NCBI GenBank assembly: GCA_002633005.1
Contig: NMRA01000797.1
Span: forward strand, 104,212-141,734
Direction: 5' to 3'
DNA from: Phoronis australis
Lineage: Eukaryota; Animalia; Phoronida
Length of the DNA: 37,523 nt
Below are positions 1,921 through 37,523 of this stretch, in pieces. The first letter of the stretch is position 1. Each line of letters starts with the position of its first letter. The notes beneath the pieces were generated by a model. It saw only the letters and a program-made list of their open reading frames with translations. It was not told the origin of the DNA and did not search any database. The position numbers and the translations under genes were made by a program.

Positions 1921-2470
1921 ATTTATTTATTTATTTAAACTTCTTTAAAAGACTGGGAGACAACTTCACTGATTTTCAAGTGGGCCCCGTCGGAAATAAT
2001 TACATGAAGTAAAATACAGAGAGCTTGTACAATTAGATTGAAAAGATTAGTAAATAAAGTACATTAGTATAAAATAAGTTAATGTGTACAATTAGATGAA
2101 TAAATAAGATAAAATAGAGTAAAATAGTGATGAGCTGAGGCCTACAGTCCCGAACCACGCACAAAGTCCCAGTCATTCAGTTTGAATACGTGGACATTGG
2201 GCGCATTCCCCGACAGCAGACCCCAGCCCGTTGTAAGCGACAGCACCTCTGTAGGCAAAGGCTCTTTTGCCACAGTTGTTTTTAGGTTCATCTGAAAATC
2301 TCTGACAGCTTTGAATTTAGTAGTGAGGTAATTAGGTTTGAGGCTATGTGTGGCTTTGTGCACCATAAAGTTTAAATGAAAGGCATGCCTGATAGGCAGA
2401 TTATCAAGTAGGTCAAACATAGGAAAGTCATTATGAAGGCCACTATAATTGAGTATCAGCCTGTGCAAGA
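1921..2470 (-). mobile_element. Degraded 3' end of an L2/CR1-type non-LTR retrotransposon
   Basis: Minus-strand ORF 2142-2468 (RLIL..MF..L..LPI...L..MVHK..H.L.P.YL...F) resembles the post-RT C-terminus of L2/CR1 ORF2; followed by a 3' UTR ending in a (TAAA)n tail at ~1921-1936. Confidence 0.55.
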
Positions 2471-2667
2471 TTCACCACGAAATTTCACCATTCAATAGTT
2501 ACCCATATTAAAATTGCCTGAACGATAATAATAGTATTTTTCAGGTAATTTACATCAAGAAAACTTTTTATTGGGATACAAGTTGGCCATATTCTGAATT
2601 CCAGCAACTTTCTGGGGATTAATTCCGAAAAATGTCCGTCTTCCACGATAACCTGCATTGTTGTGTG

Positions 2668-2776
2668 GGTAATAGTCTGATATAACGTGCCCGTATTTTG
2701 AGAACCAGTTTGAAGCCGTTATTTAGAGGAGAAAACTGGTTCTCAAAATGCTGGCACTTTATATCAGACTATTACC
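2668..2776. mobile_element. Hairpin MITE, 44-bp TIRs, 8-bp TSD (Merlin-like GG termini)
   Basis: 2668-2711 and 2733-2776 are reverse complements (3 mismatches in 44); flanks gttgtgtg / gttgtgcg (7/8 match). Confidence 0.75.
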
Positions 2777-3358
2777 GTTGTGCGCGATCACGCATGGTCT
2801 TGTGTCCCTCATCCAGAGTTTTCATGGGCTAACCATTAGGGATTTTATTCACTTTGTTTTTGTTTTGCTTTGGTTTTAAACTGTGATTGACAGCATATCC
2901 TCCACCCGTATCATGATTTCATGCTGTTACCAGAAAAATAAACGCAAGTAACTGAAGTATGAATTCATTTGCATTAGACATAAAAAAGAACATCTCTTGT
3001 TCGTGATTGTTTAAATTTGGTATCTGAAAACAAAAACATAGTTGGTTTTGCTCTGTGTTTTTTGAAAATCGAATTGGCGGCGGGTACTCGTTGTAATGGT
3101 TCTCTTTTCAAACAGCAAAAAAATCTTAAAGGCGAAGGCAATCTCTTTTCATATCATTTTTGTTAAAATAAGGTTCGTTGATTATATATATTACGTTATA
3201 TACATGTATATTATTATATGACGTTTAAGAAGTCAAGAATTTCGCGCCATTTGTTTTCATATAGTCTGACTGTGTGAGCTGTCGTGTCAGTCATTGTTCT
3301 ACCTGGGTAATTGCGATAAGTTTGGTCGTCGGTTGCTTTTGTTTACGAGTCAGTCAAC

Positions 3359-5206: not shown

Positions 5207-5381
5207 ATAACGGTTAGAACTTGCGTACAAGGAAATTTACAAAAGTAAGTGACGATGTGCGAAACACCATGAACCAATAGGTGGCGAGTGGAAATTTTAT
5301 ATAATTTTATATAATTTTAGTATAACAGGCGAATGAGGGTCGACAGGTGCCATTTTGTCAGTGACTAGTCTGGTGGTTAAG

Positions 5382-16520
<11,139 letters not shown>

Positions 16521-16790
16521 TTATTCCGTAAAGCGGCTTCCGCAGTTCTGTGCTGGGAACAATGTCTACCTTCGTACGACAGCTATTTCCTACATAAAAT
16601 TGTGTTAAGTAAAGTTCAAAACTTGAACTTCGGCGTGGAAATCTCAATTTAAGCTGTACCTACTATCAAAATTTCGGGAAATAGAACTGACTAATCTTTC
16701 CGATTGGGTTGTTTTATTTATCGTGAATAACAAAAAAGAAGTACTTAGCAACTGTAGCCGTCCTTGCAAAGATCTTTTATACCAAGAAGT

Positions 16791-19255: not shown

Positions 19256-20486
19256 TTCGGGACATTTAATAAATACTGTTTTACGGATAACGGTGTCTGA
19301 ACGTCTGGATGATTCTTGTAGTGCATTCGAATGTACTTTGTTATTAATACACCTTTAAAAATATTAAGTTTATTTTTCTATTTTAGGTGGTCACATCTAA
19401 TTATTTGTGTTATTAATTTAGTACCGTCGGTAACTGGATTAGATATACGCGACATCTGTCGTTGAGTTAGGTGGTTATCCCTTTATCGTCTTTCATGGGT
19501 TATACGCGACATCTGTTGTTGAGAGATGAGAGGGTGCGACTTCTGTTGTTGAGAGATGAGAGAGAACCAAGGGTATACTAAAACGACGACACGTGGCGCA
19601 AGCGAAATAATGTAATCTACCTTCTGTTCTTATTCAGTACGCAGCGTAATCCCTATTTTGTTTCGGCTCTCGATCAGTTGAACTCTACAAACACAACGTA
19701 GTCAACGTCTTTTTAGTGTCAGAACATCTGGGTGGTGGACGGTGCCACGCCTGATCATTTCAGCAGTCACGTGATTTCCAATTCGACCTCGTCTTCTTTC
19801 TGGTTTACCGACGTTCCCCGCTTACACGCATGACCTCGACCTTGGATCGAGGTCCCTTTCCAACGAGTCCAATTAAACCTATTACGTAATGAAGTGTCCC
19901 TTCCGGTTGCATCCATCACACGTGACCGTTGACGTTTCATTTCGGATTGATGACATTTGACCCAGGCGCCTCATACACGGGTCTCCTAAACAACTTTCTA
20001 TACCAGTGGGGGGACAGGTGTGCCCTCGCGAGATTTGATCGATAGCAGCATTCCAAACAGTGAAAAGAGGAAACCTGCCACCTTCATATCTACTGAGTGA
20101 ATGATACTCCACCGTTCCTAAAGAAGGGAACGGGACGCCCCGAGGACTTAAGAATGTTTAGTAAGTATCATAGTCCGGTTGAACAGGTTTAAATTTTCTT
20201 TTATTATAAACATTTCCGGATTATTTAGTAGAATGAATTGCAGTATAATAGAGTAGAGCGGAACCTTCCATGGCGACATTTGAGTACGAAATACTTTTAT
20301 GTACGCTTTTACAAAACGGTTAGAACTTGTGCTCAAGGTAATCCACAGACCAACGAAGATGTGCGGAACCCCAAGGTGGCGAGTGGAAATCTTGTGCGTT
20401 CCCACACAGATAAACCGACGGGTTAGTTTAACAAGTGAATGGGGGAAGACAGGTGCCATACTTCAGTGACCAGACTGGTGGTAAAG

Positions 20487-20617
20487 ATGTTGTTTGCTCT
20501 TGTCATAGTGGTGGTCCTGGTGGGGTTCTGCAATGGTCATTCGTGGCTCACGTGCACTGACTATCTAGAGGAGAATGGCGAGTATTGGAGCTCGAGTTTA
20601 TGCAGGGCATACCCGAG
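20487..20617 (+). CDS. Copy B exon 1: signal peptide + N-terminal His
   Basis: MLFALVIVVVLVGFCNG|HSWLTCTDYLEENGEYWSSSLCRAYP(R)|gtgaga. Confidence 0.9.
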
Positions 20618-23600
20618 GTGAGACGGCGGCTGTTCATTGTGATTCTTAAGTGTAATGTGACGGTAGCTTTTTCTGGCTTCATGTGTATGGTGGCTTGCAT
20701 GCAAAATATCCTCAAATGCAAAAATACGGTCACCATTTTGAAGTATACGGGTAGAAAAGTGTGAAATCGTGTTGTCTGTTGATAACATAGATCGGTAGAT
20801 CGGTTTTGTTCAATACACACCGTGTTCAAGCAGTCGCCATTTTAAAAGTGACACTCTTTTTAGGTTTTAAAAACTATACATCTTGCGCGATTTTGCGCGA
20901 TGAGCAAAGCGTGATTTTTTCGCGTGCTTCTTTATATTCATGTCTCAAATGAATTGTTTTTTAAACCGAAAATGAGGCTCACTACTAAAATGGCGACTGC
21001 AAAAATAAGGTCTATTAGGTTCAACAGGTGCGGGCTTTATGCACCGACCGTGGACTCGAACACTTACAAACCGCCAGTTTTCTCTGAGTGCAGACACTTT
21101 CTATCCGCTCAGTTAGGAAAAGCAGAGATCTATTGATGGCAGTAAGTTTTCTAAATCGAAAGTTAGTTTAATATTTGACAAAACTGTGGTGTGGAGTCGC
21201 TTTAAGCAAATAATTTTTTTACGAATTTCAAATTAATACCGGAGATTTCCAAGAGAACCTGCTTAATAATTTTTTTAAAAAGTGAAAAAGAATTTTGGCT
21301 TTTGCTAATGCAGGCTTCCAGATAACCTGAGTCGCATCATTCGTCCTTTGGAACTATATTATACTTCTTGCTTGTGACTTTCGTTGAAGTAGCTAACCAG
21401 TCTGCAAAAGCTGGCCATGTCATCCATGTTCAACCGGCGGTAGAAGTTAGTATGAACTAAGGCTGTAGGCGAGTAATGATTACGTTATAGCCTCAGATTT
21501 AAAAATAGACTTTTATAAAAACTGAAAGATTTAGAATGACAGTTTCATAAACTGAAGTAATCTCTTTATATTTTGCCCGATATGACTATTCAGACTGCGA
21601 TCACACTCCGACGTTCTGCGAGCTTATTAAAAAGAAAATTTCCTTAGACATCTTTCTAACCAGTGGACTGTTTGTAAGGAGACCATTCATATTTCTAAGA
21701 GCAAATACTTTCGTTCGGATACTCCTCGAACACGAATACATATGCATGGTGGAGGCACAAAATGCCCATGTAAATCTAGTCGAAATTCGCCAACCAAAGC
21801 TGTAGTAATCTTTCATTCTTTCAAAAGTATGTTATGTATCTGACGGTACCAGTGCAATTTGACACGTCATATATTTAGGCGTTTCAATTGCACCCCAAAC
21901 CCCCACTCACTCCAGATTCGGGTAAAACTTAGAGAAAATTCTGTCGAAGCAAGAAAAAATCTGACAGTGTTTTAGGAAAGGGTGTAATCGGTGGCTACCA
22001 GGGAAGGGTAAAATTAGTGGCGACGAAAGTTAAATTGGTGGTGACCATAATTCCCCTACCTCAATATTCAGGCAAAGCTATTTCATATGCCCCCTCTCCC
22101 GCCCCCGAACAGCCACGTCCAGATACACCTATGGCCAAAGGGCTAATTTTTACGTCATCATTATGCAGGACTAGTCACAAATGAATAGAACCTGTTTTGG
22201 ATGACAACGTCCATTTTTCATGGTCAGATATCAACCCGATGGAGGAATGACGTCTTAGCTGGATAGAGTAAGAACAAATCTTTGTCAACAATGCTAACCA
22301 GCAGTGCGGAACAAGACAACATCTCAAACAACCGAGTTTTAATCTACTGTATTTCTTTATTTCTTTACCGTCAGCAGTTCTAATGCGCCTTTGATGACAT
22401 ATAGCATTTTGTACAAATTTGAGAATATTAAAATAAAATCATGTGTCAATTCTACAATTCACTTCAAAGTGACGTTATCGGCGACGACCTTGAGTACATG
22501 TACATGAGATCATCCCAAAAAAGGATTCAAACCCATTGCTGTAGCTAGTGGTCGCAGTCAGGCGCGATGCTAGATTTGAAACCCAAGGTGGCGGGATTTT
22601 CTGCAGACAAGTCCGGTGCTTATATTCGGAATTTCTCGGATTAGAAAATGAAAGTCAAATCCTAATATACGCCCGGGCGTATATTTACAGGTGACGAATT
22701 ACTGTAGCCGGCTCGCAAATTGAAATCAAGAGATGTATGATTGTTGGAAATTTACTTTAGTTTTGGTCTTATTGTTAATTTCTTATGACATTGGAAAAAT
22801 TTCAGGATTTAGCCGTGCATATTTTCCCAGATTTATGCCATGAACTTATTTCTCGAGAATTCTCCTTATGTACATGTAGCTTCATTGGGCGTATTTAAAC
22901 ACGGGACTGATTGACGAAAACTCCGCTTATGAAAACACAAAAGATTATTTTTTGTTTTATAGGCCAAAGCCGCTAATAAAAACGTATTTTTCAACTTCAA
23001 AACTGATTGTGTCTCTGTAATGGAAGACAAGCGAGAACTTTGCCCCGCGTAATCAACGACTTTTTCAGCTCAGCTAGTTTCGATGCAGCTTTTCAGTTAG
23101 GTTAAAACTGACAAATAAAACCGTACACAAAACAAACGTCCTTTAAACGAACACTCTTCCTAGAGCAAACGTCATTCTTTTGCCATTTTAGGCGCTGGCT
23201 TTCAGCGCCGTCACCTGTTGGCCATTTTTTCGCCGTTTCTTCAATCAGCTGTCAAGTTCATCTTCCACAAGGTTGCGTACACGTCACAACAAATCATCGG
23301 AACAGGTTTCACTTCTTTATAAGGTTTTAGTATTTTAATGACCACAAATCGAATTTCAGAACAAAATTGCTTCGGCGAAGCTATCCTCATCTCCCGAAAG
23401 ATGTCGCAAAAATTATCAAATAGCGCGTGCACGTTTCATTAGTGTGCTGTTTCAAACTTCTTTGCTGCAACAAAATGCCATATTCGCTTAAACGGCTGTA
23501 ATGAGCAAGGTGAGAGTCGATAAACTTCCAGATTTTGCGTGCTCTCCCCCCGTTCGCTAGCTGACTTGTTGATACAAGGTTCACGATGAGTTGGCGGAGC

Positions 23601-26600
23601 AGGACGGACATAATGTTTTACTTTTTCGTGCAATCCATGCATGTACATCGATTGTCCTTCATTAATTCCCTTTTTCCTTTACCGTAGCCTTATCCGTCTG
23701 AATTTATGTCTTCCTTAGTATGATGTAGTGTGTCATATTGTATTGCATTACTCTGTGGACCGTCGTTGTAAAATGAATGAATCAATGAAACAAACTATCA
23801 AGTAGGTGTGAAATTTTGAGGTCTGTGCGAGATTAGCACGCACTGCTTTTCCCCGCTGTATTTGCATGTTAGTTACCATGCAGTTGATTAGCTGACTGGG
23901 GATTATCATGAAATGCTGGTTATTTTTGATTAAAAATCAATGTGATGTTATGACAGCAGTATTTAGAAAATATTTCGTCTGATTTTGTTTGTGTTGTAGT
24001 TTTTTATGACAAAATTAAGGACACTGCATCTTTTAAGGGTATTTCTAAATCAACGTGTCAATATCTTTCTTTCATCAAGGCATGCTTCTAAATTTGCTAA
24101 CAAAGAGAAGTTCGGTGTTGATACCGGGTATAACCACTTCGGCAAAGAATCCGCTCCTTGTAAATCAAGCAGAGATGACTCGGGTGGATACGACTCCACC
24201 TACCGAATGGCGGTCTACTACCCTGGACAGAGAATTGTGTTGACACATCCAACGAAGGTAAGATAGCTTCTTGCTGGCTTGCAATCAGGCGAGTTCACGG
24301 CCATACTGGTTCTTCAATTTTTCATTTCTGACATTTCAGAAGTGGTTGTCAACGAGTACCTTAGGCTAATTCACATGCTTTCTCTGTTCGATCTTCTGCT
24401 TTTTAGAATCACGTGGCCGAAACGTGCACCAATATGTGGATCCCAGACAATGGAATGATGCTTTATATGTCTGGCAAGTCCGGCGATGTAAAGATGTCCG
24501 AGTATAAAGCCAACCCAATCTGGGACTTTGGAAAGTAAGGACGTGTTAATGGCTATGTTATTACTGTTTTGAGTAGCGTAGCAATTTTTCTTGTCCATGT
24601 CTGTTTCCCAATTATTGCGCTTTCGAAACATGCCCAGTACGTGGTAAATGTGGACTCAAGATTACAAGACACTAACTCAGCAATTCAGTTCGGCGTCCGT
24701 GTAAACAGCCTGGACTGGTATTAATATTCTTCAAAGTCACATTTATCAGAAACATTTAGAATGTTTATTGTGTGTTTTTATTAAAAAATCAAGGTGATAA
24801 TATAGGTGGCGCGAGAACCACAAGTGAGTGTTCGCGAGATATCGCCATGCCTTACAAGCAAAGCATGTGGTCATTCTAGCTTCATTCGCGAGGGTCCGTG
24901 GACCTTTAATTGCTTGTAATGCTCGAAGATTTGGCTTTTCCCAATCTCATTCTGAAATGTGGCCACCGTATTTAACTGCTGCTTTCATGTACATATACCT
25001 ATTTAACAGGAAGTATGAGAATGACATACAAGTTCCAGAAACATATCGTGGTCAATGTAACATTCTTATGAATTGTGCTGCTAAAATATTAACACTTAGG
25101 CTACGGCTGAGACCAATTTGGACTGACAAAATATTAAAATCGAGAGGTAGGCCAGGCTTGGGCGTACTTTTTAGGTAGGTGTTACATGTAGGCTCCGTGA
25201 TTGTGGTTTGTTTGTATTTGTGATCATGTTAAGAATGCGAAAAGACCACTTGCTCGGCTGTAGCTGCAATCTCCTTCAAGATGGCGGCCCCCTGTTGCAT
25301 GTGTGCATTGCTGGGCTGCAATTTCAGGTAGCTCTCAAACAAGACAGAATTGCCGAAACATGGTTGATTGACAGTATTTTTGGACCACATTTTTGAAATT
25401 GGTAGGAAATTTGCTTTCATAATCTAATGTTGACTTATGTCGTGTATCGACACAGAAGTGGTGGTTTTGGGGTGAACAGTGCCAATTTTGTGATTTTTTT
25501 CTTTTTTTTTTCTTTGCCTGCCTTGCTTTTCAGTAGGATTGAAAGGGTAAAAATACAAATCAAAATAAAGTTTTTGTATTCATCTATAGGGCTTCTGGTG
25601 TAAAATGACTCAAAAGGTTTCGTTTTTTGCCTACAATTTTTGACAGAATGAAGAAAGGGTGGCAATTCCATTTGACGACGAGTGTTCTGGGAGGCAAACC
25701 CCTGTGAGAACTGTTCTGATTCATTTGAGTTTGGGTTAGGCTTAAGATTTGACCAAGCAAGTCATCTGTAAATGTATACCGTATAATTCAAATAGGTTTT
25801 AAAACATTTGGTAATGCTGTATGGTAGGGTGATGGCGTTTTTAAACATTCGGCATCATGTTCTCAGGATCAATTTTAATTGCAGGGTATAACAACTTGTC
25901 TTTTACGTACTTGTATTGACTCTTGGGTTGTCTTCCTGTGTGAATTTCGTGTCAAGAAAACAATACAGCCATAATCTCCAGATTGTTCGAAGGTTTATAA
26001 AAATCACTGTGTTTTAACTAAAATCCCATCCGTTGAATATTCACAGGCTGTAACTATGTCCACTTACAGGTCACCCAATGGTCAGAATAACGGAATGAAT
26101 TTTGACAAAAATCTTCTTTCAACTTACCCTAAGCCTGGATATCAAAACGCACCAAAATTCTGCGAGAACATGGATAAAGCATTGGCAACTATGGCGTTTG
26201 ATCTCCCTACAGACGTAAAGCCAGGTACACATAGTTGTGTCCGTTATACATTTTTTTTAATTCTGCTCTTATGAAATATTAATCTTGTTTATTACCTGGC
26301 GATAGCCTTGTATCTTACTTGTCTATAGATTTTGTTTTTGGTTTCTTTGTTCGCATTGACGTGAAATTTACAAACTACCTGTGTGTCATCAATATATCTC
26401 GAGGTCTGTCATCTTTAGTTGACATCTGGCGAAAGGTGGCAAAATGGCGGCCATTTTTCAATTTTTCGTTTCCAGAGTCGTATTTTCGGCATATCTTTAC
26501 TGATCTTTTCGCAATTTGGTGCGTGGATAGACCTCACCAAGCGTTATCAGTGTTTAAAACTACTCATTTTCCGCTACAGCTCACTTTTCTTGAGTTATTC

Positions 26601-29600
26601 GAGATTTTTTGATGACTGCTCGTAAAATTTAGTTTTTGTGCCCTGTCTTGGGCGTCCATTGACGGTTATGTCGGAAATTTAGTTTGTAGATACATCTTCT
26701 CTAGCTCTATCGGCAATGTGGGTCTTGTGTCTCGCTTCGACTTAATGTTTACGTGACTTTCGGGATGTCCTAGTCAGATGACTTCTTTTGTGCTAATTTC
26801 TAGCTGCACTTTTGTTGGTCTACCATGTTTGTGCTACAGGTCGAATATTTTCTGTCGTTATCACGAAATTTACTCTGACGTTTATCTCGTCAGTAGCTCG
26901 AAGACTGGTTTTTATTCGATGGCGATGTGACGTCATTTGTTGAATAATCCTTCGCGGGACTCTAGTAGCTCCGCAATCCTCTGTTAGAACATTCTAAATG
27001 TTGGCGTAATGGGAATAGACCTCCTTGAGCGCTATAAGTGGAACATTATTGGTTTCTCGCTATGACCAACCGTTCTTGAATTATTCGAAATGTTCTGATA
27101 TGATGACTGCTCTTTCATTGACTGACACTTTGATGCAGTGTTATAGTTTATCTTTTACTGTATGTTGGTGTAATTATCGTCGGAGTCGTAGTTGTTGGTG
27201 ATCTTGGTTTTGTCGCCGTCAGCTTTTAATTTTTTTTCGATTTCGCCAAGTATTGCAAATCAAGGAGCTTTTCTTTATATTGATATTACGGTGCACATTG
27301 TCCCAGTCACCTTCAAACAGAATTGGACATTTATGCTTGACAATAAATATATGCGTCACGAAAAGAGCACACGCGTTGTTGCTTCTGTCCACACTTTAAA
27401 TGCCGTGTGCCCTTCTCGGAAAAGAATTCGACACTAGTTTCCCTAAAACTCGCGAATTACATCATTGTACGCGTTTAAACAACGTCGGAGTTGTGGTTTG
27501 AATCGTCTGGCTATTTCAGGTCACTTTTCTTGAAAATTACTCGGATTGTGAAGTTTTACTAAATGCTACTTTGGCGTCTCAAGAATGGTCAACTTCAAAG
27601 TAAGATAATCAAGGAATTAAGTGTTCAGTAATCCGCAAATAACACGTATTAGCTTGTATTAATTCACGACTCGATTTTGACCGCCGCAAAATTAAACCAA
27701 AACATGCAGATCGGTTTTGGACGTAAAAGGGATTCCATCCGAAGGCTTTTGATGACGTTTTGGGGCTCTGGTTTGGAAATGCACTGCGTCATATAGAAAT
27801 GCGTGCAAAATGTGTAACTGGAAATATTTAGTAACAAAGGTGATTTTTTTTTCTAGGTCGCTATAGCTTCCTTTGGGCGTGGTGGTTTAACACCAACTCT
27901 GACGAGTATAACGGCTGTTTCGAGGCAGATGTTGTGGCCACCAAAGCGGAAAGAGACGCCATCTTAAAACAACGAGGTCAGACGACAAATGACCCAGGTG
28001 AGGCCCATGGAATAATAAACTGTAGCATGGACAAACTATGGTTGTAACATGGGAGGGCATGCTCAGGTCAATTTCGAACTTTCCAAAATGGCATTAACGT
28101 GATCTCGCGAAACGCTTTCGGTTGGCATGTGTCCTAACAGAATACAAATCGCTCTCTTCACACCGTCTAAACCCACGCTCCGTCCAGTAAGCGCTCAGTA
28201 CCGTTTGCCGCTAAAAGTGGTCTCGGCTTGTTCCTTACTCGGAAGCGAAGTGATTTCTGGGTTTGCAAACAGCTGGAAGTTCGTTATTCTTCGAGACCAT
28301 GGCTCGCCGCATGTAGTAACATACCGTGTAGATTTCGGCCTTTTAACTACAAAATTGGCACCCGTTTTCTTGTCTTGAAATCACCCTGACGAAGATGAAG
28401 TTTGAGACCAGTGTTATAAATCTAAGTTGTTTTTTGTGCCGGAAAGCGAGCTTGTAGCCGTTTCATAAAAAGTGAGAAACGCAAGAAAAGAAATTTGTTG
28501 CATCAACATCACAGTGCATTAGGTCGTTTTCATGCTTGGAGTTGTAATTGACCCGTTTAATGATAGACGGATATGTGAAATTACAATGGATTGTGGACTG
28601 CCGTTCGATACTAAAGGTGATTTAATTAACGTGCAGCGGGGTTGAGAGAGTGATTGATTCTTTTATTTCAGTCAACATTTACGACAAGAACGGTGGCGGC
28701 AAGCCAGTGACCAGCGCCCCTGGTGCTAGCTCAACAACTGATGGCGCTGTCATCAAAGTCGACGGAGGGTGGGGAGCGTAAGTTCAATAATTGCTGTTTC
28801 ATTTTAAATTTCTTGTCGACTTTGTCGTTTTGCTGTGGACAACATTTTTATTTGATGGCAATTAACAAAAGACTGGTACACTTGGAGGAAGGGATTCCTG
28901 TTCTCTTAACAGATTGTGGGCTGTGATAAATTTGCTTCTTATAAAAGGGAGGAATTTTGAAATGTAGGTCACAGAAAAAAAATGTAAAACGTTCTGAAAT
29001 CCCAATTTCGGAGGATCCGCCCATCGGGAATTTCCCACCATCTTGCGGGGCCGAATCCTTGGACTAGATTTTAGAAGATGCAAATAAACAAAGTCAGAGC
29101 CACACATAGGCCTAGAGAAGAAGTGGAACTCAATCTGGAGCCGGAATATTGAACAAGTGTTCACTGTTTTCCTCGTTTACTACCAAAAGGTTAAATCTGA
29201 CATTTTTTCTTAACTGCCATGCATCAATCGTTTGTGAAAATCATAATTTTGATTCGTGTTTTGGGTGAAAACCATTGTTTTGTTTGGTTGATACGACGGA
29301 CGGGGTAGCGTGATGAGATCATGTACCAAACTGGTTGCTCCTGCGGAGTGTCTCTCGAAACTAACTTGATTTATTCCGTTTGAAGTTTTCAATTCTGCCT
29401 TGACTTAATCAGCACTGGATCTCTAAACGAATGTAAATAGTAGGGCAATTCCAACTCGTAGATTTTCCGTCTGGGGCGATTGTTCTGTCACGTGCGGAGG
29501 TGGAGTTCAACGGCGCGTGAGACATTGTGACAACCCAGCACCACAGAACGGCGGCGCCATGTGCACAGGCAATGACGAAGAGACAAGAAATTGTAACACT

Positions 29601-32379
29601 GACCGATGTCCACTTACGGGTGGAGTGACTTTCAACAGTAAGTTGACAATTTCGGTGCAAGAACTAGTATGCATCTGCTTAGCAATATGTTACGGTTTGC
29701 GTAAATATATTGACTGGATTTGTTTGACGTATTATTCAACAGCACTTTTTCAACGACAACAACAGATGTACGCCACACGTGGAACCAAATAATGTAATTA
29801 GTAATTTGCCAGAACCAATTACTTGACACTGTTTTGGTAAATGCTGCTACAACATTAAATTCTGAAGTTTACATTAAAAAAACAACCAAGTCTTTTTAAC
29901 CACGAGATGAATTTAAATAATTTGTAGACCTAAAAGTTGAGTTTACTTCTCACTGGGGGCATGGGGCCAACGCCATTGTCGTGTTACCAAGCAACAGGCC
30001 TAAGGACGCGACGTACGTCATTGAATTTCCGTGCCCACCACAGGGAGTTTACGTAAGTGACCACTAAATTTGAAAAGTATGTATTTTACTTCGTGAGATG
30101 ATCATGCCCGGGCTGCACACCATAAGGGGCTGGGGCTACAGCCCCCACTTTTTCAGTGCTGTAGTTCTTTGGTGAAGAATTGCATACACACGTATGATTG
30201 TGCTCCATAAACGTTCGTCTACGGTATATCATCTATTTACCTCTTCAGTCTCCCATTTTATAGTCTCCATCATTCAGCTGAATTTTGTTATGATGCCAAA
30301 TCACCGAACACTGTCCATACTAACTATCTACATGTACAGTAGCATAGAATAGTCAAGTGTTTAAACAAGTATCAAGGGATTAAATATGAAGAATTCCCAT
30401 GGTACATCTGATTCTGACCACTAACGACGCCTCGTGAATAGTTTCAAACAAGTGAACTTAGTTACCATCATCAATGCATAATTTACATACCAACAAGTGC
30501 AGTGTCTTATGTAATCTCGAACCCAGACTCTAATAGGATTGGAGTTTGGTGAAGATCCCGAAATGGTGGTCATTTGGGTAATTACCATGATAAGCTACGA
30601 GGCACTTTACATGCAATTGCGTATTGCAGTATTTCAAAATTGTCTCCTGTTTCTCTCAATTTCGATGTGATTTTCTTCTGCTCATTGATTTTTTAAGATT
30701 TATCAAAATCACCAATTGATCATTATTGGAAAAGTTTTCATACATATAAAACTGTATGCACAATGGTAGTGTAACCGAAGCGAAATATTCTGATCGGGTG
30801 GCAAGTATGCTACCCGAGTGACGTCATGACCGTTGGATATGGTGGTCGCATCCGTTTATCAGCTTGATAGCTGTGGAGGACTCTAAGAACAAGTATTTCA
30901 TGATCAGGGGATTTATGGCGATATGTTGGCGTTTAGTGCTGTTCTTCAGACCTCATCGTTTATTGGCTAATCACCTACCAGTTGCCATGTTGTTTCACCC
31001 GTCCCGTGTGGAGTATGTAAAAAAGTCACAATCTGTTTTGACAGCACATTTTGGTGGTAATTTTGGACAGTGTGTCAGTAGCGTTGACCAAAAATATGGT
31101 CTAGCAATATGCATTGTGTTTGTGTTATTTTATTAGAAATAGTCGATTCCTCAAAAGACTTTCTGTCAAAGTTCACTGAAATCGAGCAGTCTACCTCATC
31201 GTTGTTGAAAATGGACGTCGTAGCCCAGCAAGCACAGTTGAGCAGGGTTGGTTACAACGCTCGACCTCGTAAGGCATGCACTTAAATTTTAACGGTGCAC
31301 TGTCACTTAGCGTGCTCTTAGGTTTTTACAATGTACGTGTACAGTCACTCGGAGCATTTGTTTCGAATCAGGTAAAAGGTGGAGCCGTAGAGCCAGCCAG
31401 AATTAACCTGGACTCCAGAGCTATTTTAATAGCTTTAAAAAGTTGCAACATGGCGGGCTGTGTAAGGAGCTGGTCAAAGACTGCGTGAAAAGAGCTGGCA
31501 AACGTGTTGAGCCTGTGTTAGAAAAAGAAGCGAAGAGCCAATTACAGTGGATGAAAAATCTCATTAGAATAAGCATTTGGGAATGAAAATGACTACCTTG
31601 AGAGATGAGTTGGACATTTCTAGATAGGTCGAGCTTGCTCGGCTAGACAGTCGGGTGGGTTTGTATTCTGTCTCTTATTCCACATATAGCTCGCCATTCG
31701 TGATTTCCTTTGATTCAGTGCGTAAACATACAGTTTTTGAAAAGCTTGCAATGTATCCTATCTTAACCTCTTGGATTCCTTGACGAGTCTTAAACACGTG
31801 TGAACCATTCCAGCCTGTTTTCGACTGATCTTGACTTCATTATAGAAACAAAACTTGTTTTCTTTAATGGCCAAGTCTGCTCGCTTATACACTTCTGGGA
31901 GGTAACTATTATCACATTACTGTGTTTTTGGACGCCATGACTGAAATCTAAAATTACGGGTCCTGGCATTGAGAGCTTGCGAAGAAGATGGATTTTCATG
32001 GTCAAGAGGGGTTTATCAAGGAAGCTGACGGTCAATGGCTTTACAGTTGTTTACGAAACTAAAAAAATCAAGTGATAAACACGCGAGATAATTGTTGTTT
32101 TTTTTTTCAAAAAAGGTGGTCCAAGAAAAATTCGTGTAATTCTGTTCAATTTTTCTATCCGTCGATTATGTCACGGCAGCTAAACGGAATTTACCCTCTT
32201 TGCAGCCTTGGCATGTGAACGATGTGAGTGCCTCAGATGAGAAGGCGCAAGGAATCTACAGCTTCAAACAAACTGACCAATGGATGAGAGACAAGCCAGA
32301 TTTTGGTTTCACTGTCCAGTTTGGTCAGTGCAAAGTTCAGCAGGGGTCGGAGGTGAAGATTACTGCCAAGCTTGGCTGA
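20487..32379 (+). CDS. Gene copy B: intact 437-aa secreted His1 LPMO-like domain + TSP1 + CBM2-like protein; 9 exons
   Basis: Exons 20487-20617, 24080-24257, 24407-24534, 26070-26224, 27857-27997, 28672-28777, 29462-29637, 29928-30052, 32206-32379; 1314 nt, all GT-AG, no internal stop. Confidence 0.92.
20830..21000. mobile_element. Intronic MITE-like inverted repeat
   Basis: Perfect 15-bp inverted pair GCAGTCGCCATTTTA / TAAAATGGCGACTGC; not seen in copy A intron 1. Confidence 0.55.
24080..24257 (+). CDS. Copy B exon 2
   Basis: catcaag|G HASKFANKEKFGVDTGYNHF...LTHPTK|gtaaga. Confidence 0.9.
24407..24534 (+). CDS. Copy B exon 3
   Basis: tttttag|NHVAETCTNMWIPDNGMMLYMSGKSGDVKMSEYKANPIWDFG(K)|gtaagg. 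Confidence 0.9.
26070..26224 (+). CDS. Copy B exon 4
   Basis: ttacag|G SPNGQNNGMNFDKNLLSTYPKPGYQNAPKFCENMDKALATMAFDLPTDVKP|gtacac. Confidence 0.9.
27857..27997 (+). CDS. Copy B exon 5
   Basis: ttctag|GRYSFLWAWWFNTNSDEYNGCFEADVVATKAERDAILKQRGQTTNDP|gtgagg. Confidence 0.9.
28672..28777 (+). CDS. Copy B exon 6
   Basis: Same peptide as copy A exon 6; tttcag / gtaagt. Confidence 0.9.
29462..29637 (+). CDS. Copy B exon 7: thrombospondin type-1 repeat
   Basis: tcgtag|A FSVWGDCSVTCGGGVQRRVRHCDNPAPQNGGAMCTGNDEETRNCNTDRCP..|gtaagt. Confidence 0.93.
29928..30052 (+). CDS. Copy B exon 8: CBM2-like, first half
   Basis: ttgtag|NLKVEFTSHWGHGANAIVVLPSNRPKDATYVIEFPCPPQGVY|gtaagt. Confidence 0.88.
32206..32379 (+). 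CDS. Copy B exon 9: CBM2-like, second half
   Basis: ttgcag|PWHVNDVSASDEKAQGIYSFKQTDQWMRDKPDFGFTVQFGQCKVQQGSEVKITAKLG*. Confidence 0.88.
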   Translation, partial: PWHVNDVSASDEKAQGIYSFKQTDQWMRDKPDFGFTVQFGQCKVQQGSEVKITAKLG

Positions 32380-32588
32380 TTATCCCGTAATGCGTCTACT
32401 ATACACAGCTTAGAGCTGGGAAGGAAATCCACCTTTGCACGACGGCTACTTCCTTCGTAAAATTCTGTTAAGAAAACTAGAATTCAAAATCTTTGAAGTG
32501 GAAATCTTAATTCAAGCTGTACTTTCTACAAACATTTCGGGAAATGAAACGGACTGATCTTTCCGATTGTGTTAATTTGTCTAACTGG

Positions 32589-32594
32589 AATAAA
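32589..32594 (+). promoter_or_regulatory. Candidate polyadenylation signal of copy B
   Basis: AATAAA ~210 nt after the stop. Confidence 0.45.
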
Positions 32595-33177: not shown

Positions 33178-33528
33178 TTAGCCAAAGCAGCAATCACAAT
33201 ACTTGTTAAACGGCCTCTTGTTGTTGAAGATTTCTTTACACAGAGATGGGTTCTCCTGTTTCAAGAAGTCGTACACAGCTTCGATTCTAACTCCTTGCTC
33301 CATGTGGCTTCCGTTCTCAACCTTGGAAACCTCGTACACACCTGGTGCAATATCTGGCAACGCTATGGAATGAATTGCTGCAACAGCGACGTTGTAGTCA
33401 TGCGTTTGTGCGAAGGCTGGACTTCCAGAACTTCCACCGAGAAAAAACATATTTGTGTGGTAGTGGATTCTCCGCTCATCCTCAATATTTGGGTATTTTC
33501 TCTGCGAGTATTCTTTGATTTTATCAGG
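33178..33528 (-). CDS. FAM111-like trypsin-fold serine protease, last coding exon (catalytic Ser)
   Basis: gatttcag|PDKIKEYSQRKYPNIEDERRIHYHTNMFFLGGSSGSPAF..AIHS..EQGVRIEAVYDFLK..*; resembles FAM111A YTQRSF..ITYDTEFFFGASGSPVF as recalled; phase 0 joins the upstream exon. Confidence 0.82.
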   Translation of the reverse strand, partial: PDKIKEYSQRKYPNIEDERRIHYHTNMFFLGGSSGSPAFAQTHDYNVAVAAIHSIALPDIAPGVYEVSKVENGSHMEQGVRIEAVYDFLKQENPSLCKEIFNNKRPFNKYCDCCFG

Positions 33529-35093
33529 CTGAAATCAAATAATATTTATTGAGAAGACAGGCAGGAGTAGATGTATCATGATAAATGGGAGTAGCGAGAA
33601 AACGAACGTTACAAAACAAATAATCCTAACTTTTTATTCACACCACTAACATGTATGATTACACTTGTTCCTTATTGACAGGAGACTTGGTTTACGGTCT
33701 TACAAATTTCTGTAAGCAAACAAAATAACACGCCGTGACAAGTGGGCTCGTACAGTTTTTTCTCACATGACCTGGAATGTGTTACAACACGACTGGTTAA
33801 TAACACCGAGTACGTAATTTTTGATATTACATGGGCGAATCACAAAGTAGTGCAAAGTAAAAATCCATACGCCTTACATTTTATCGCCTGCAAAACACTA
33901 AAGCAACCAAACGCGCTGCAACCAAACAATGCCGGAATTCTGTGACAAGGTTGTGGTTGACACATCGGTTGTCGCAACTGTACGTGCTCCCAGTCGGAAG
34001 GACATGCAAACAACTTCTTAAACGGACCGATCTTCGGCGACGAGTTCCATATTCACGTTCATTCAAACGGAGACGAACCCCAACTCAAGAAACGCGGTGT
34101 GACTGTCTTACTTTGCCGTCTCAAAGCACGCGTTCCAAGCGCAGTAACACTATTCAAGAGTTAATTAAATGCAAGCCGTTACATGCTTGCAGCTCACTGT
34201 AATAGGTTACTTTAATACATCATACACCGTAACACTCTTCAACGAGTCGCAAACATGTCTATGATATGTCGTAGTCAACAGTTAGTCCTGTATAACGCGT
34301 TGAGTAAATTTTTAAACATAACGCGTAAATATCGTTTCACATTTTTTTGTAAATTTCAGTTTTACATTATTTTGCATCGTGTAGCTTGCTCAATGTAAAT
34401 ACAGAAAAATTATCTAATTTCTATCCCTAAATACTGAACACTAATTATCGTTAATCAATGCTGTACGCAATCAGGCAAATTTGGTTTGAAACGGGGTTTA
34501 TACTACGCGTGACTTTTTTTTTCGCAACATGCGTTCACTGGCGCTTCACTAGAATGATGACTCTGCGGCAAGTCGCGAGAGATTCTTCAACAAATTTTCA
34601 AAGTTGATCAAAACTCGCTTGGAGTCAACATATCGTATGCTAAGTCTTGTTATTCTAAGAAAGATTTTCCCGTATCAAATTCACACCACCGTAGACAACT
34701 TCGTGTTGCCGAGAGAAAGTCACCCCAAAGAGAGTTTTTAACATTTCGTGGACAGCAAATGAAACAGTCTGGTCAAGTTTTTGTTAATTTCTTCATAAGT
34801 TTCTTAAGTTAACTAAAATATTTTGAAAAAATTAACGTTGATAAAAGTATTTTTCCAGATATTGATCTTACCATGTGCCGACTCTAAAAACACTCGCTGC
34901 GCCACTGAACATGTTATCGGTGGCAGAAGCGTCCGCGTGTTTACAAATTTGTTGTGGATCTCGCTCTACACTGGTCCGTCCTTGAGATACCTTGGTAACT
35001 TCGAATTGTGAAAGGGGGATAACAACGTATCGGAGACTAACCCGTTATTACATCTTAACCCTTAGAAGCTGTGATCTAGGGAATGTTACAAAC

Positions 35094-35448
35094 CTCGAGT
35101 TTCTCCTTGGGTATTATTTCGCAGAACATGTCAACACGTTTGGGGTTACAGCACTGTATCACGGGATGTCCACCAAAGTGAAGCACGGAGTGGTTCCTAT
35201 TCACTTCGACGAATTCACGTATAGGCTCCGGCATAGATGGTCCCAGTTTTTTAACCTCACTTGCTGGTATTTCTAATACTGCAAAGTCCAATTCTTTATT
35301 GTATGCTGCCACGCAATTTCCAGTGAAGAATACCACTGTTTTTTGTGCATAGCAAGTAGTAGGGGCATCGAAGAAAAAGATGGCCTGTTGTAGTTCCTCC
35401 GCTGGAAAACAAAACGATGATGAAGCTGCTGCGATCACCTCTATATGC
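35094..35448 (-). CDS. FAM111-like serine protease, penultimate exon (catalytic His and Asp)
   Basis: aaccag|G HIEV...YNKELDFAVLEI...LHFGGHP...KRVDMFCEIIPKEKLE|gtttgt; His-to-Asp spacing 53 aa. Upstream exons not found in the window. Confidence 0.78.
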
Positions 35449-35628
35449 CTGGTTTTAAAAATTTAGTGTACCTTTGCGCGGAACAGACGTACCAGTGAGA
35501 AGTGCAGTCTGTCCTAGGTGTGGTACTGGCTCTGAGAGTCCAGTCATTTATAATAACACATGAGAACAAATGGAAACTTCTGATGATAGCTTCTTATTGT
35601 GGAGTAATTACTTATGACCTTGTGATAT

Positions 35629-36819: not shown

Positions 36820-37523
36820 TGGGGCCTTACAAAGAGCCCAAAATGAGCTAGACTAGATATTCGAGGTACCAACCAAAACTGATTTAAAACGAACAATAGT
36901 ACCGCACTGAACACCGAATGACCCTTGACAGACAAATTGCACTCTGGAATAGGTCCGGCAGAAACCAAAAAGGACCCCCCAAAAATGAAGACCCCTGGGG
37001 GCCTTACAAAGAGCCCAAAAAATGAGCTAGACTAGATTTTCGAGGTACCGGCCAAAACTGATTTTAAACGAACAATAGTACCGCACTGAACACCAAATGA
37101 CCCATGACAGACAAATTGCACTCTGGAATGGTTCCGGCAGAAACCAAAAAAGGACCCCCCAAAAATGAGCTAGCACATACATTCGAGGTACCACACAAAA
37201 CCAATTCCATGTGATTCAATACATGTCACAGATCACGAAAACCCCTATGACAGACACAATACACTCTGGGTTGTGCCCGGCAGAAACCCCCAAAAATCTC
37301 AACCATGGTATGCCATCAAAAATTTGAGCTAGACTAGATTTTCGAGGTACCGGCCAAAACTGATTTTAAACGAACAATAGTACCGCACTGAACACTAAAT
37401 GACCTATGACAGACAAATTGCACTCTGGAATGGGTCCGGCAGAAACCAAAAAGGACCCCCCAAAAATGAGCTAGCACATACATTCGAGGTACCACACAAA
37501 ACCAATTCCATGTGATTCAATAC
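36820..37523. repeat. Satellite array with ~142-179-bp related monomers, running off the window end
   Basis: TGAGCTAG..CGAGGTACC..GACAGAC..CACTCTGG..CCGGCAGAAACC units starting at 36844, 37023, 37166, 37325, 37467. Confidence 0.92.

Follow-up and report, generated by a model that had tools for sequence, protein, structure and literature searches.

The window considered here is a stretch of 37,523 nucleotides of the Phoronis australis contig NMRA01000797.1 (assembly GCA_002633005.1), to which the position numbers refer. It harbors a gene, referred to as gene B (20487-32379, plus strand), whose 437-aa product is read here as a secreted, copper-dependent lytic polysaccharide monooxygenase (LPMO) of an unclassified family, cutting crystalline β-1,4 polysaccharide, most likely the cellulose of ingested algae and detritus. 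In this complete form, the reading stands about evenly between acceptance and rejection; the broader statement that the protein is an active LPMO, be it on cellulose-type food or on chitin, or in a role concerning the animal's own structures or its defence, appears quite probable. In the literature covered, AA15 stands as the sole animal LPMO family, and the sequence comparisons and predicted structures reported below make it likely that the gene represents a second one.

The open frame of gene B was obtained by joining nine exons by their coordinates, and all the splice sites are of the GT-AG type. Exon 1 (20487-20617) starts with the ATG at 20487 and encodes a 17-aa hydrophobic leader (a predicted signal peptide) ending C-N-G, followed by the mature N-terminus HSWLTCTDY (His1 codon, 20538-20540), Cys6, and Cys22. 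The remainder of the catalytic domain is encoded by exon 2 (24080-24257; Asp41, Cys54, the strand YPGQRIVL, the variable His83, and the near-invariant Lys86), exon 3 (24407-24534; His88, the second putative brace histidine, at 24410-24412, and Cys93), exon 4 (26070-26224; the near-invariant Gln154 in GYQNAPKFC, and Cys160), and exon 5 (27857-27997), which contains the terminal strand pair W-x-W-x-F-N...D-E-Y-N-G-C, with Tyr198 (27907-27909) embedded in F-N-T-N-S-D-E-Y-N-G-C, then Cys201 and a helix. Exon 6 (28672-28777) encodes a Gly/Ser/Thr-rich linker and the start of a thrombospondin type-1 (TSP1) domain, which continues in exon 7 (29462-29637; Pfam PF00090, E 4.7e-15, above the cut-off), whereas exon 8 (29928-30052, with Trp331) and exon 9 (32206-32379, with Trp365 and Trp389) encode the two halves of a CBM2-like module. 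An earlier note on this DNA had described a protein split over five exons and closing at position 27997; the catalytic domain does span five exons, but the gene has four more (linker, TSP1, and the two CBM2-like exons), a tail that had been overlooked, and its stop codon lies at 32377-32379. No hydrophobic C-terminal anchor was found in the gene B protein (maximum 18-residue hydropathy, 0.7).

Gene B is a genuine, transcribed, and spliced animal gene. All eight introns are joined by RNA reads in each of the three raw-read runs (which carry the same species label, and about 18-19% of each of which was read), with 6-164 reads per joint (90-164 in run X2, 63-107 in X3, and 6-17 in X4), every exon being thus tied to its neighbors in RNA. 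The 437-aa frame backed in this way comprises the leader, the domain with His1, His88, and Tyr198, the linker, the TSP1 domain, and the C-terminal module. The same eight joints are present in a 1556-nt contig from a fourth run (X1). Every first mate of the reads on the joints maps to the minus strand, as would be expected for a plus-strand RNA in a stranded library of the usual type. Expression seems to differ between samples, the joint reads per million records being 9.5 in X2, 7.2 in X3, and 1.1 in X4, i.e., an about ninefold spread. In three X4 reads, and in none from X2 or X3, exon 3 is skipped (24257 joined to 26070); the resulting form would lack His88 and be frame-shifted. A candidate exon near 31138 was discarded: it is out of frame, and the RNA reads join 30052 straight to 32206.

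The residues that might build the copper site are conserved to a very high extent. The leader ending C-N-G and followed by HSWLTCTDY, which the earlier note had read in gene B and in its tandem paralogue (gene A), is exact in both sequences, as are the six Cys of the domain (positions 6, 22, 54, 93, 160, and 201). The domain of gene B has His at mature positions 1, 28, 46, 83, and 88. The alignment of homologues, for which the earlier note had called, comprised 129 sequences (fewer where a position is absent) drawn from a larger set of 254 relatives, and it bore out the invariance of the three proposed positions: His1 is kept in 125/126 homologues and His88 in 127/127, while position 198 is occupied by Tyr in 116 and by Phe in seven (together 123/125). 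The first histidine is followed by Ser2 (126/126) and Trp3 (125/126). His83, put forward as an alternative second histidine, did not survive the comparison, since only 68 of the 129 homologues have His at this position, the others having Trp (40), Tyr (20), or Phe (one), as expected for a core aromatic residue; His28 and His46 were likewise rejected as copper ligands, being variable among homologues. Other near-invariant residues are Lys86 (128/129), Asn87 (124/127), Gln154 (124/127), and Arg27 (123/127), followed by Asp41 (119/128) and Asp164 (116/127), and the six Cys are kept in 94-100% of the sequences (119/123 to 128/128). Judging from this alignment, the Lys located two residues before the second His is a distinctive feature of the putative active site.

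Cleavage directly before His18 of the precursor is predicted from the hydrophobic leader and from the pattern of small residues preceding it (A/S/G/C/T at -1 in 124/126 homologues; mostly V/A/I/T at -3). At the other end of the domain, the residue two positions before Tyr/Phe198 is D in 80, E in 47, Q in 35, and N in six of 217 motif matches (168/217). The motif N/Q/E-x-F/Y, described for the axial residue in the last strand of LPMOs (PMC5320794), is matched only loosely, because gene B has Asp at -2, the commonest residue among its relatives.

The fold was predicted on the mature domain of a Watersipora homologue (P0003, 53.5% identical over 273 aa), not on gene B itself. In the AlphaFold model (pLDDT 87.6, pTM 0.88), His88 follows the strand 79-85. 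When this model was compared without bias with 48,161 chains, 23 of the 24 best-scoring rows were members of the LPMO superfamily (Z 7.0-11.5, 7-16% identity), their alignments starting at model residue 1 or 2 and extending over the domain, in agreement with the LPMO-like fold that had been suspected from the sequence. The best match is an AA10 protein (Z 11.5, root-mean-square deviation (rmsd) 2.8, 144 aligned), and no LPMO family stands out, the other Z scores being 10.2 for AA15, 9.2-9.4 for AA11, 9.3 for fusolin, 9.1 for AA13, 8.5-8.9 for AA9, 8.8 for X325, 7.8 for AA16, and 7.0 for AA14; the gaps between families are small and favour compact domains. The best 50 rows of a second structure search all belong to the LPMO superfamily (6-17% identity over both searches). 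Foldseek retrieved AA9, AA10, and AA11 at E 1.6e-4 to 1e-3 (TM 0.3-0.45, 8-20% identity), together with a few non-LPMO sandwiches; the search of BFVD gave only unnamed or fusolin/GP37-type matches, and the top structure match in the Atlas is an unassigned Mucoromycota cluster automatically named LPMO (TM 0.73). The domain is thus predicted to adopt the LPMO β-sandwich. When the family profile was compared with the PDB sequences, Tyr198, proposed as the axial residue, was aligned with the Tyr of the AA11 stretch REMYMNC (E 1.5e-5), a link limited to the last strand pair, i.e., about 50 residues.

As for the placement of gene B among known families, the best Pfam match of the catalytic domain is DUF7492 (PF24320), a family mostly of Ascomycota and annotated without a function. 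It matches 88 of 230 relatives at E≤0.001 and, in a set of 21, it matches 16 at E≤0.1, five of them above the cut-off; the scores of P0003 and of the Owenia protein P0028 are 39.1 and 29.1 bits, respectively (cut-off 27). The top three Atlas feature matches are also DUF7492 clusters (0.91-0.94). The catalytic exons of gene B, scanned singly, gave no DUF7492 or other useful Pfam match. These matches are partial and close to the cut-off, and the gene B branch is animal, oomycete, amoebal, and viral, with TSP1 and CBM2-like modules, unlike the mostly ascomycete DUF7492; on these sequence comparisons, the gene B domain is a divergent branch related to that family.

A putative LPMO group named LPMO16, with A. 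niger An07g08250 as representative, has been flagged by a hidden Markov model (Voshol et al., 2017, 2019; PMC5320794, PMC6950343). According to PMC6950343, it comprises 78% fungi, 4% Metazoa, and 6% oomycetes, is related to AA11, AA14, and AA16, and has an unknown substrate. The gene B family resembles this group in its taxonomic range and in its link with AA11, as far as the descriptions can be compared, and we consider it probable that it belongs there. This bears on the earlier suggestion of a possibly uncharacterised family, which holds in the sense that no experimental study of the gene B family was found, nor any naming DUF7492, PF24320, or IPR055915, in a literature search that left most subscription journals outside; the family has, however, probably been already flagged by computer as LPMO16, with its 4% of metazoan members (PMC6950343). 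Within the same limits of the literature search, An07g08250 was found only in the two papers by Voshol et al., and 10.1101/2024.12.29.630648 concerns AA9 alone.

With AA15 (TdAA15A, 5MSZ), gene B shares the predicted LPMO fold of a secreted animal protein (Z 10.2, rmsd 3.5, 150 aligned), the fusion to CBMs, His1, a second His near position 90, and the position of the axial Tyr. It differs in the low structural identity (12%), in having six conserved Cys instead of ten, in starting with HSW, and in the presence of Lys (128/129) where AA15 has Ala two residues before the second His. PMC5823890 gives, for AA15, ten Cys, His1/His91/Tyr184, and Ala89, and a sequence relation to other LPMOs of 20-30% identity. 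The position outside the AA15 pattern, asserted by the earlier note, stands: the motif HGxLxxPxxR occurs in 0/254 relatives, no match to the Pfam family LPMO_10 was found at E≤0.001 in 251 of them (one at E 0.045), and 5MSZ is absent from the PDB profile search at E≤10. The similarity with AA11 (AoAA11, 4MAH/4MAI; AfAA11B, 9EXJ; Z 9.2-9.8) concerns the terminal strand pair W-x-W-x-FN...Y-x-x-C, whereas the identity is 13-16% and the AA11 domain is larger, with another N-terminus; no full-domain sequence relation to AA11 was found, only the last strand pair matching. AA10 proteins have the highest structural scores for the catalytic domain (Z 10-11.6), and those with CBM2, such as ScLPMO10C, share the LPMO + CBM2 design (6F7E, Z 8.1 for the tail); however, the identity is only 6-15%, and gene B is eukaryotic, contains introns, and has a TSP1 domain between the two modules. 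No PDB sequence of AA9, AA10, AA13, AA14, or AA16 was matched at E≤10 in the profile search, and none of these Pfam families was found at E≤0.001 in 230 relatives. As to AA17, no entry so titled is present among the structure rows listed and no PDB sequence was matched, which excludes nothing. The families AA13-AA18 are listed, with Santos 2025 cited, in PMC13431639. The AA18 of Santos 2025 is presumably CelOCE, a protein with another fold. By sequence, then, the gene B family is placed outside AA9-11 and AA13-16. In other words, the idea of a new animal family is retained as regards its position outside the characterised AA families, but the family is not animal-specific, extending to oomycetes, amoebae, viral contigs and, distantly, to the fungal DUF7492.

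The C-terminal module of gene B (about 100 aa, with the three Trp at positions 331, 365, and 389) is likely sugar-binding and, on the models, CBM2-like. It is 35% identical over 80-81 aa to the tails of Branchiostoma proteins, with scores of 136 and 142 versus a shuffled mean of 25 (0/1000 shuffles as high); these tails match Pfam CBM_2 with 27.7 and 21.7 bits (cut-off 24), and the tail exons of gene B, scanned singly, gave no Pfam match. The first seven rows obtained with the model of the orthologous Owenia tail (pLDDT 85.4) are of the CBM2 type both with Foldseek (best E 8.6e-4) and with VIA (Z 7.5-8.9 versus 7.2 for the next fold), some entries in these lists being presumed members of the CBM2 family. 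The Atlas structure comparison also points to a CBM2-like tail, below its naming bar. Pfam scans were performed on 251 of the 254 relatives (in batches of 21, 105, and 125), and the partner domains disclosed were CBM1 (19), CBM2 (3), CBM49 (1), GH5 cellulase (2), and TSP1 (3). In two proteins, P0158 and P0187, the family domain is fused to a GH5 cellulase domain, the former grouping with oomycete members (94/82).

The relatives were collected starting from exon 2, which led to one longer protein, from this to 24 relatives and, with their profile, to 127 (the best 120 of the 127 listed). Among 1.84 billion representatives at 50% identity, the profile matched 665 at E≤0.001, 450 at 1e-10, and 193 at 1e-30; the best 150 of the 665 were listed, and 254 relatives were analysed in total. 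The animal sources are Branchiostoma, Styela, Clavelina, Ciona, Watersipora, Lingula, and Owenia (i.e., amphioxus, tunicates, a bryozoan, a brachiopod, and an annelid); the other named sources are saprolegnialean oomycetes (five species from four genera), as well as Naegleria, Willaertia, and Phaeothamnion. The closest proteins, Owenia P0028 (48% over 451 columns) and Lingula P0047 (47.5% over 427), have the same order of domains as gene B (catalytic domain, TSP1, C-terminal module), and the Branchiostoma proteins are 33-52% identical to it. A phylogenetic tree was constructed on 45 rows: 39 of the 254 proteins, selected because they are named or carry notable domains, plus genes A and B and four viral sequences. 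It contains no fungal DUF7492 rows, and its midpoint root serves for drawing only. All the 19 animal rows, together with four unnamed rows, lie on one side of a branch (99/96), and the nearest neighbor of gene B is an Owenia protein (unstarred support, 93/89); the topology fits one ancient animal lineage, although a root would be required before the grouping could be termed a clade. The viral members, uninterrupted and with leader and HSW start, come from four IMG/VR contigs (L001, at 1998-3209; L002; L003, at 1938-2894; L004), two of which are labelled GVMAG; they fall in two positions of the tree, and L003, ending in CBM1 (Pfam E 3.4e-11), groups with four unnamed CBM1-bearing proteins (99/97). 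In prokaryote genomes, searched with a single pattern and therefore with little power, 24 matches were obtained, none of which is a relative.

In the mechanism that we propose, signal peptidase would cut after Gly17, freeing the amine of His1, and the domain would fold as the LPMO β-sandwich predicted from the homologue. His1 and His88 might then grip a single copper as a T-shaped brace, Tyr198 taking the axial position. The domain would contain three disulfides, and its second shell might comprise Gln154, Lys86, Asn87, or Asp196. The reduced copper would use H2O2 or O2 and hydroxylate C1 or C4 of the glycosidic bond, a chemistry like that of known LPMOs being likely. The CBM2-like tail may dock the enzyme on the polysaccharide via Trp331, Trp365, and Trp389, and the TSP1 domain might act as a stiff spacer or adhesive unit. 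Cellulose is suggested as the substrate because of the partner domains, and digestion, i.e., the opening of walls for hydrolases, as the role (the weakest step) because of the feeding mode of the animals named above, which are marine suspension or deposit feeders (few species, with a biased sampling).

Several points weigh against an enzyme cutting dietary cellulose. The best structural matches of the modelled domain are AA10 proteins, many of which are chitin-active, and the sole sequence link leads to AA11, also chitin-active. The CBM2-type matches of the tail are tied, with Z 8.9 for chitin-binding, 8.5 for xylan, and 8.1 for cellulose, and the CBM1 and GH5 partners sit on non-animal or unnamed members of the family. 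The Z of LaX325 (8.8) lies inside the range of true LPMOs, and a brace alone does not guarantee activity, the X325-type proteins having one but lacking polysaccharide oxidation (PMC13353379). Hydrophobic tails, present in 65/254 relatives, would fit cell-surface roles; lastly, the Lys replacing the Ala of AA15 and AA10 two residues before the second His could alter the site.

Some of these points favour an active LPMO on chitin or another β-glycan, directed to food (diatom or fungal chitin), to the animal's own structures (tube, chaetae, gut lining, tunic), or to defence against microbial walls, an explanation that is possible but unlikely. AA10 and AA15 are the closest structures, the top score of the tail model is chitin-binding, tied though it is, and TSP1 is an extracellular-matrix and immunity module. 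On the other hand, the Pfam scans of the 251 relatives disclosed 25 modules of cellulose type or cellulase domains but no chitin-specific CBM or chitinase family, and the differences in Z between LPMO families are small and biased to compact domains. A non-catalytic copper protein, carrying or buffering copper at a polysaccharide surface in the manner of X325/Bim1, is rather improbable. LaX325 (6IBH) resembles the predicted gene B domain in its fold and brace, Asp41 or Asp164 could give a fourth ligand, and the hydrophobic tails just mentioned would suit such a protein; however, the X325-type proteins are described in PMC13353379 as having a brace, a GPI (glycosylphosphatidylinositol) anchor, an Asp ligand, no CBM, and no polysaccharide oxidation, whereas gene B has a CBM2-like tail, no anchor, and a conserved Tyr at the axial position. 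The axial Tyr/Phe and the acid or amide at -2 are kept in the family, and two relatives are fused to a GH5 cellulase. Still less credit is given to a copper enzyme of altered chemistry, an oxidase or a peroxygenase, whose site would be reshaped by Lys86 and Gln154 for the supply of H2O2 to other enzymes, for the oxidation of a charged glycan, or for a non-sugar target: the conservation of Lys86, Asn87, Gln154, and Arg27 and the 7-16% identity to every solved LPMO family speak for it, but nothing positive indicates another substrate, and the appended modules point to neutral β-glucans. An origin of the gene model in an artefact or in contaminant DNA, as the assembly gaps, the doubled exon 2 of gene A, and the presence of the family in oomycetes, amoebae, and viral contigs might suggest, is practically untenable, being refuted for gene B by the eight introns joined in RNA and opposed by its place within the branch of all 19 animal rows and by the full domain order shared with the Owenia and Lingula proteins at 48% identity.

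Gene A (5382-16520, plus strand) is a tandem paralogue of gene B, its protein being 89.5% identical. Its exons are located at 5382-5512, 6794-6971 (with a second copy at 7773-7950), 9719-9846, 11109-11263, 12050-12190, 13009-13114, 13928-14103, 14414-14538, and 16347-16520; 192 of the 209 domain residues are identical, and the leader, the brace residues, and the other features stated above are all kept. The duplication covers the whole gene (5317-16730 versus 20423-32593), the introns being still 70-86% alike in blocks. At 16350-16352, where gene B has Trp365, gene A has a TAG, either a genuine stop or a sequencing error, which would leave little of the last exon and of the second CBM2-like half that it encodes. 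Gene A is weakly expressed, three of its own joints being covered by 2-4 reads in two of the three raw-read runs, and most of the RNA reads placed on it bear the letters of gene B. The codon differences between the two genes (27 synonymous and 17 non-synonymous in the catalytic domain, 15 and 20 in the C-terminal module) would fit a relaxation of selection in one of the copies, affecting its tail. In the intron 2 region of gene A (6269-8210), about 1 kb including exon 2 is present twice, 91% alike and flanking an N; the two copies of exon 2 differ at three bases, and the doubling probably reflects either two haplotypes or a join made during assembly. Further along the same intron, a long poly-C run lies beside another N.

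Downstream of gene B, a convergent gene on the minus strand (exons 33178-33534 and 35076-35462) contains the motif GGSSGSP; no Pfam match was found for these exons at E≤0.05, and we presume that the gene resembles a trypsin-like serine protease. The last part of the window, from 36814 to its end at 37523, carries tandem repeats whose units measure about 170-180 bases.

The new content of gene B, as disclosed by the comparison of sequences, is an animal lineage with an LPMO-TSP1-CBM2-like design, with cellulose-pointing partners, and with Lys at the second-His minus-two position. This Lys offers a testable active-site feature for DUF7492/LPMO16, a large group with 665 clusters (50% identity, E≤0.001), for which the CBM1, CBM2, CBM49, and GH5 partners suggest first substrates. 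A second animal family, if true, would widen the oxidative breakdown of polysaccharides in animals to amphioxus, tunicates, bryozoans, brachiopods, and annelids, and would bear on the digestion of algal walls by filter feeders. In its boldest form, which we advance only tentatively, the family might be an ancient second one of active animal LPMOs of LPMO-TSP1-CBM2 design, with no sequence relation to AA15, preserved as a single lineage, and with a Lys/Gln second shell that would differ from all copper sites described; by its means, chordate and lophotrochozoan suspension feeders may attack planktonic cellulose walls oxidatively, with no need of microbes.

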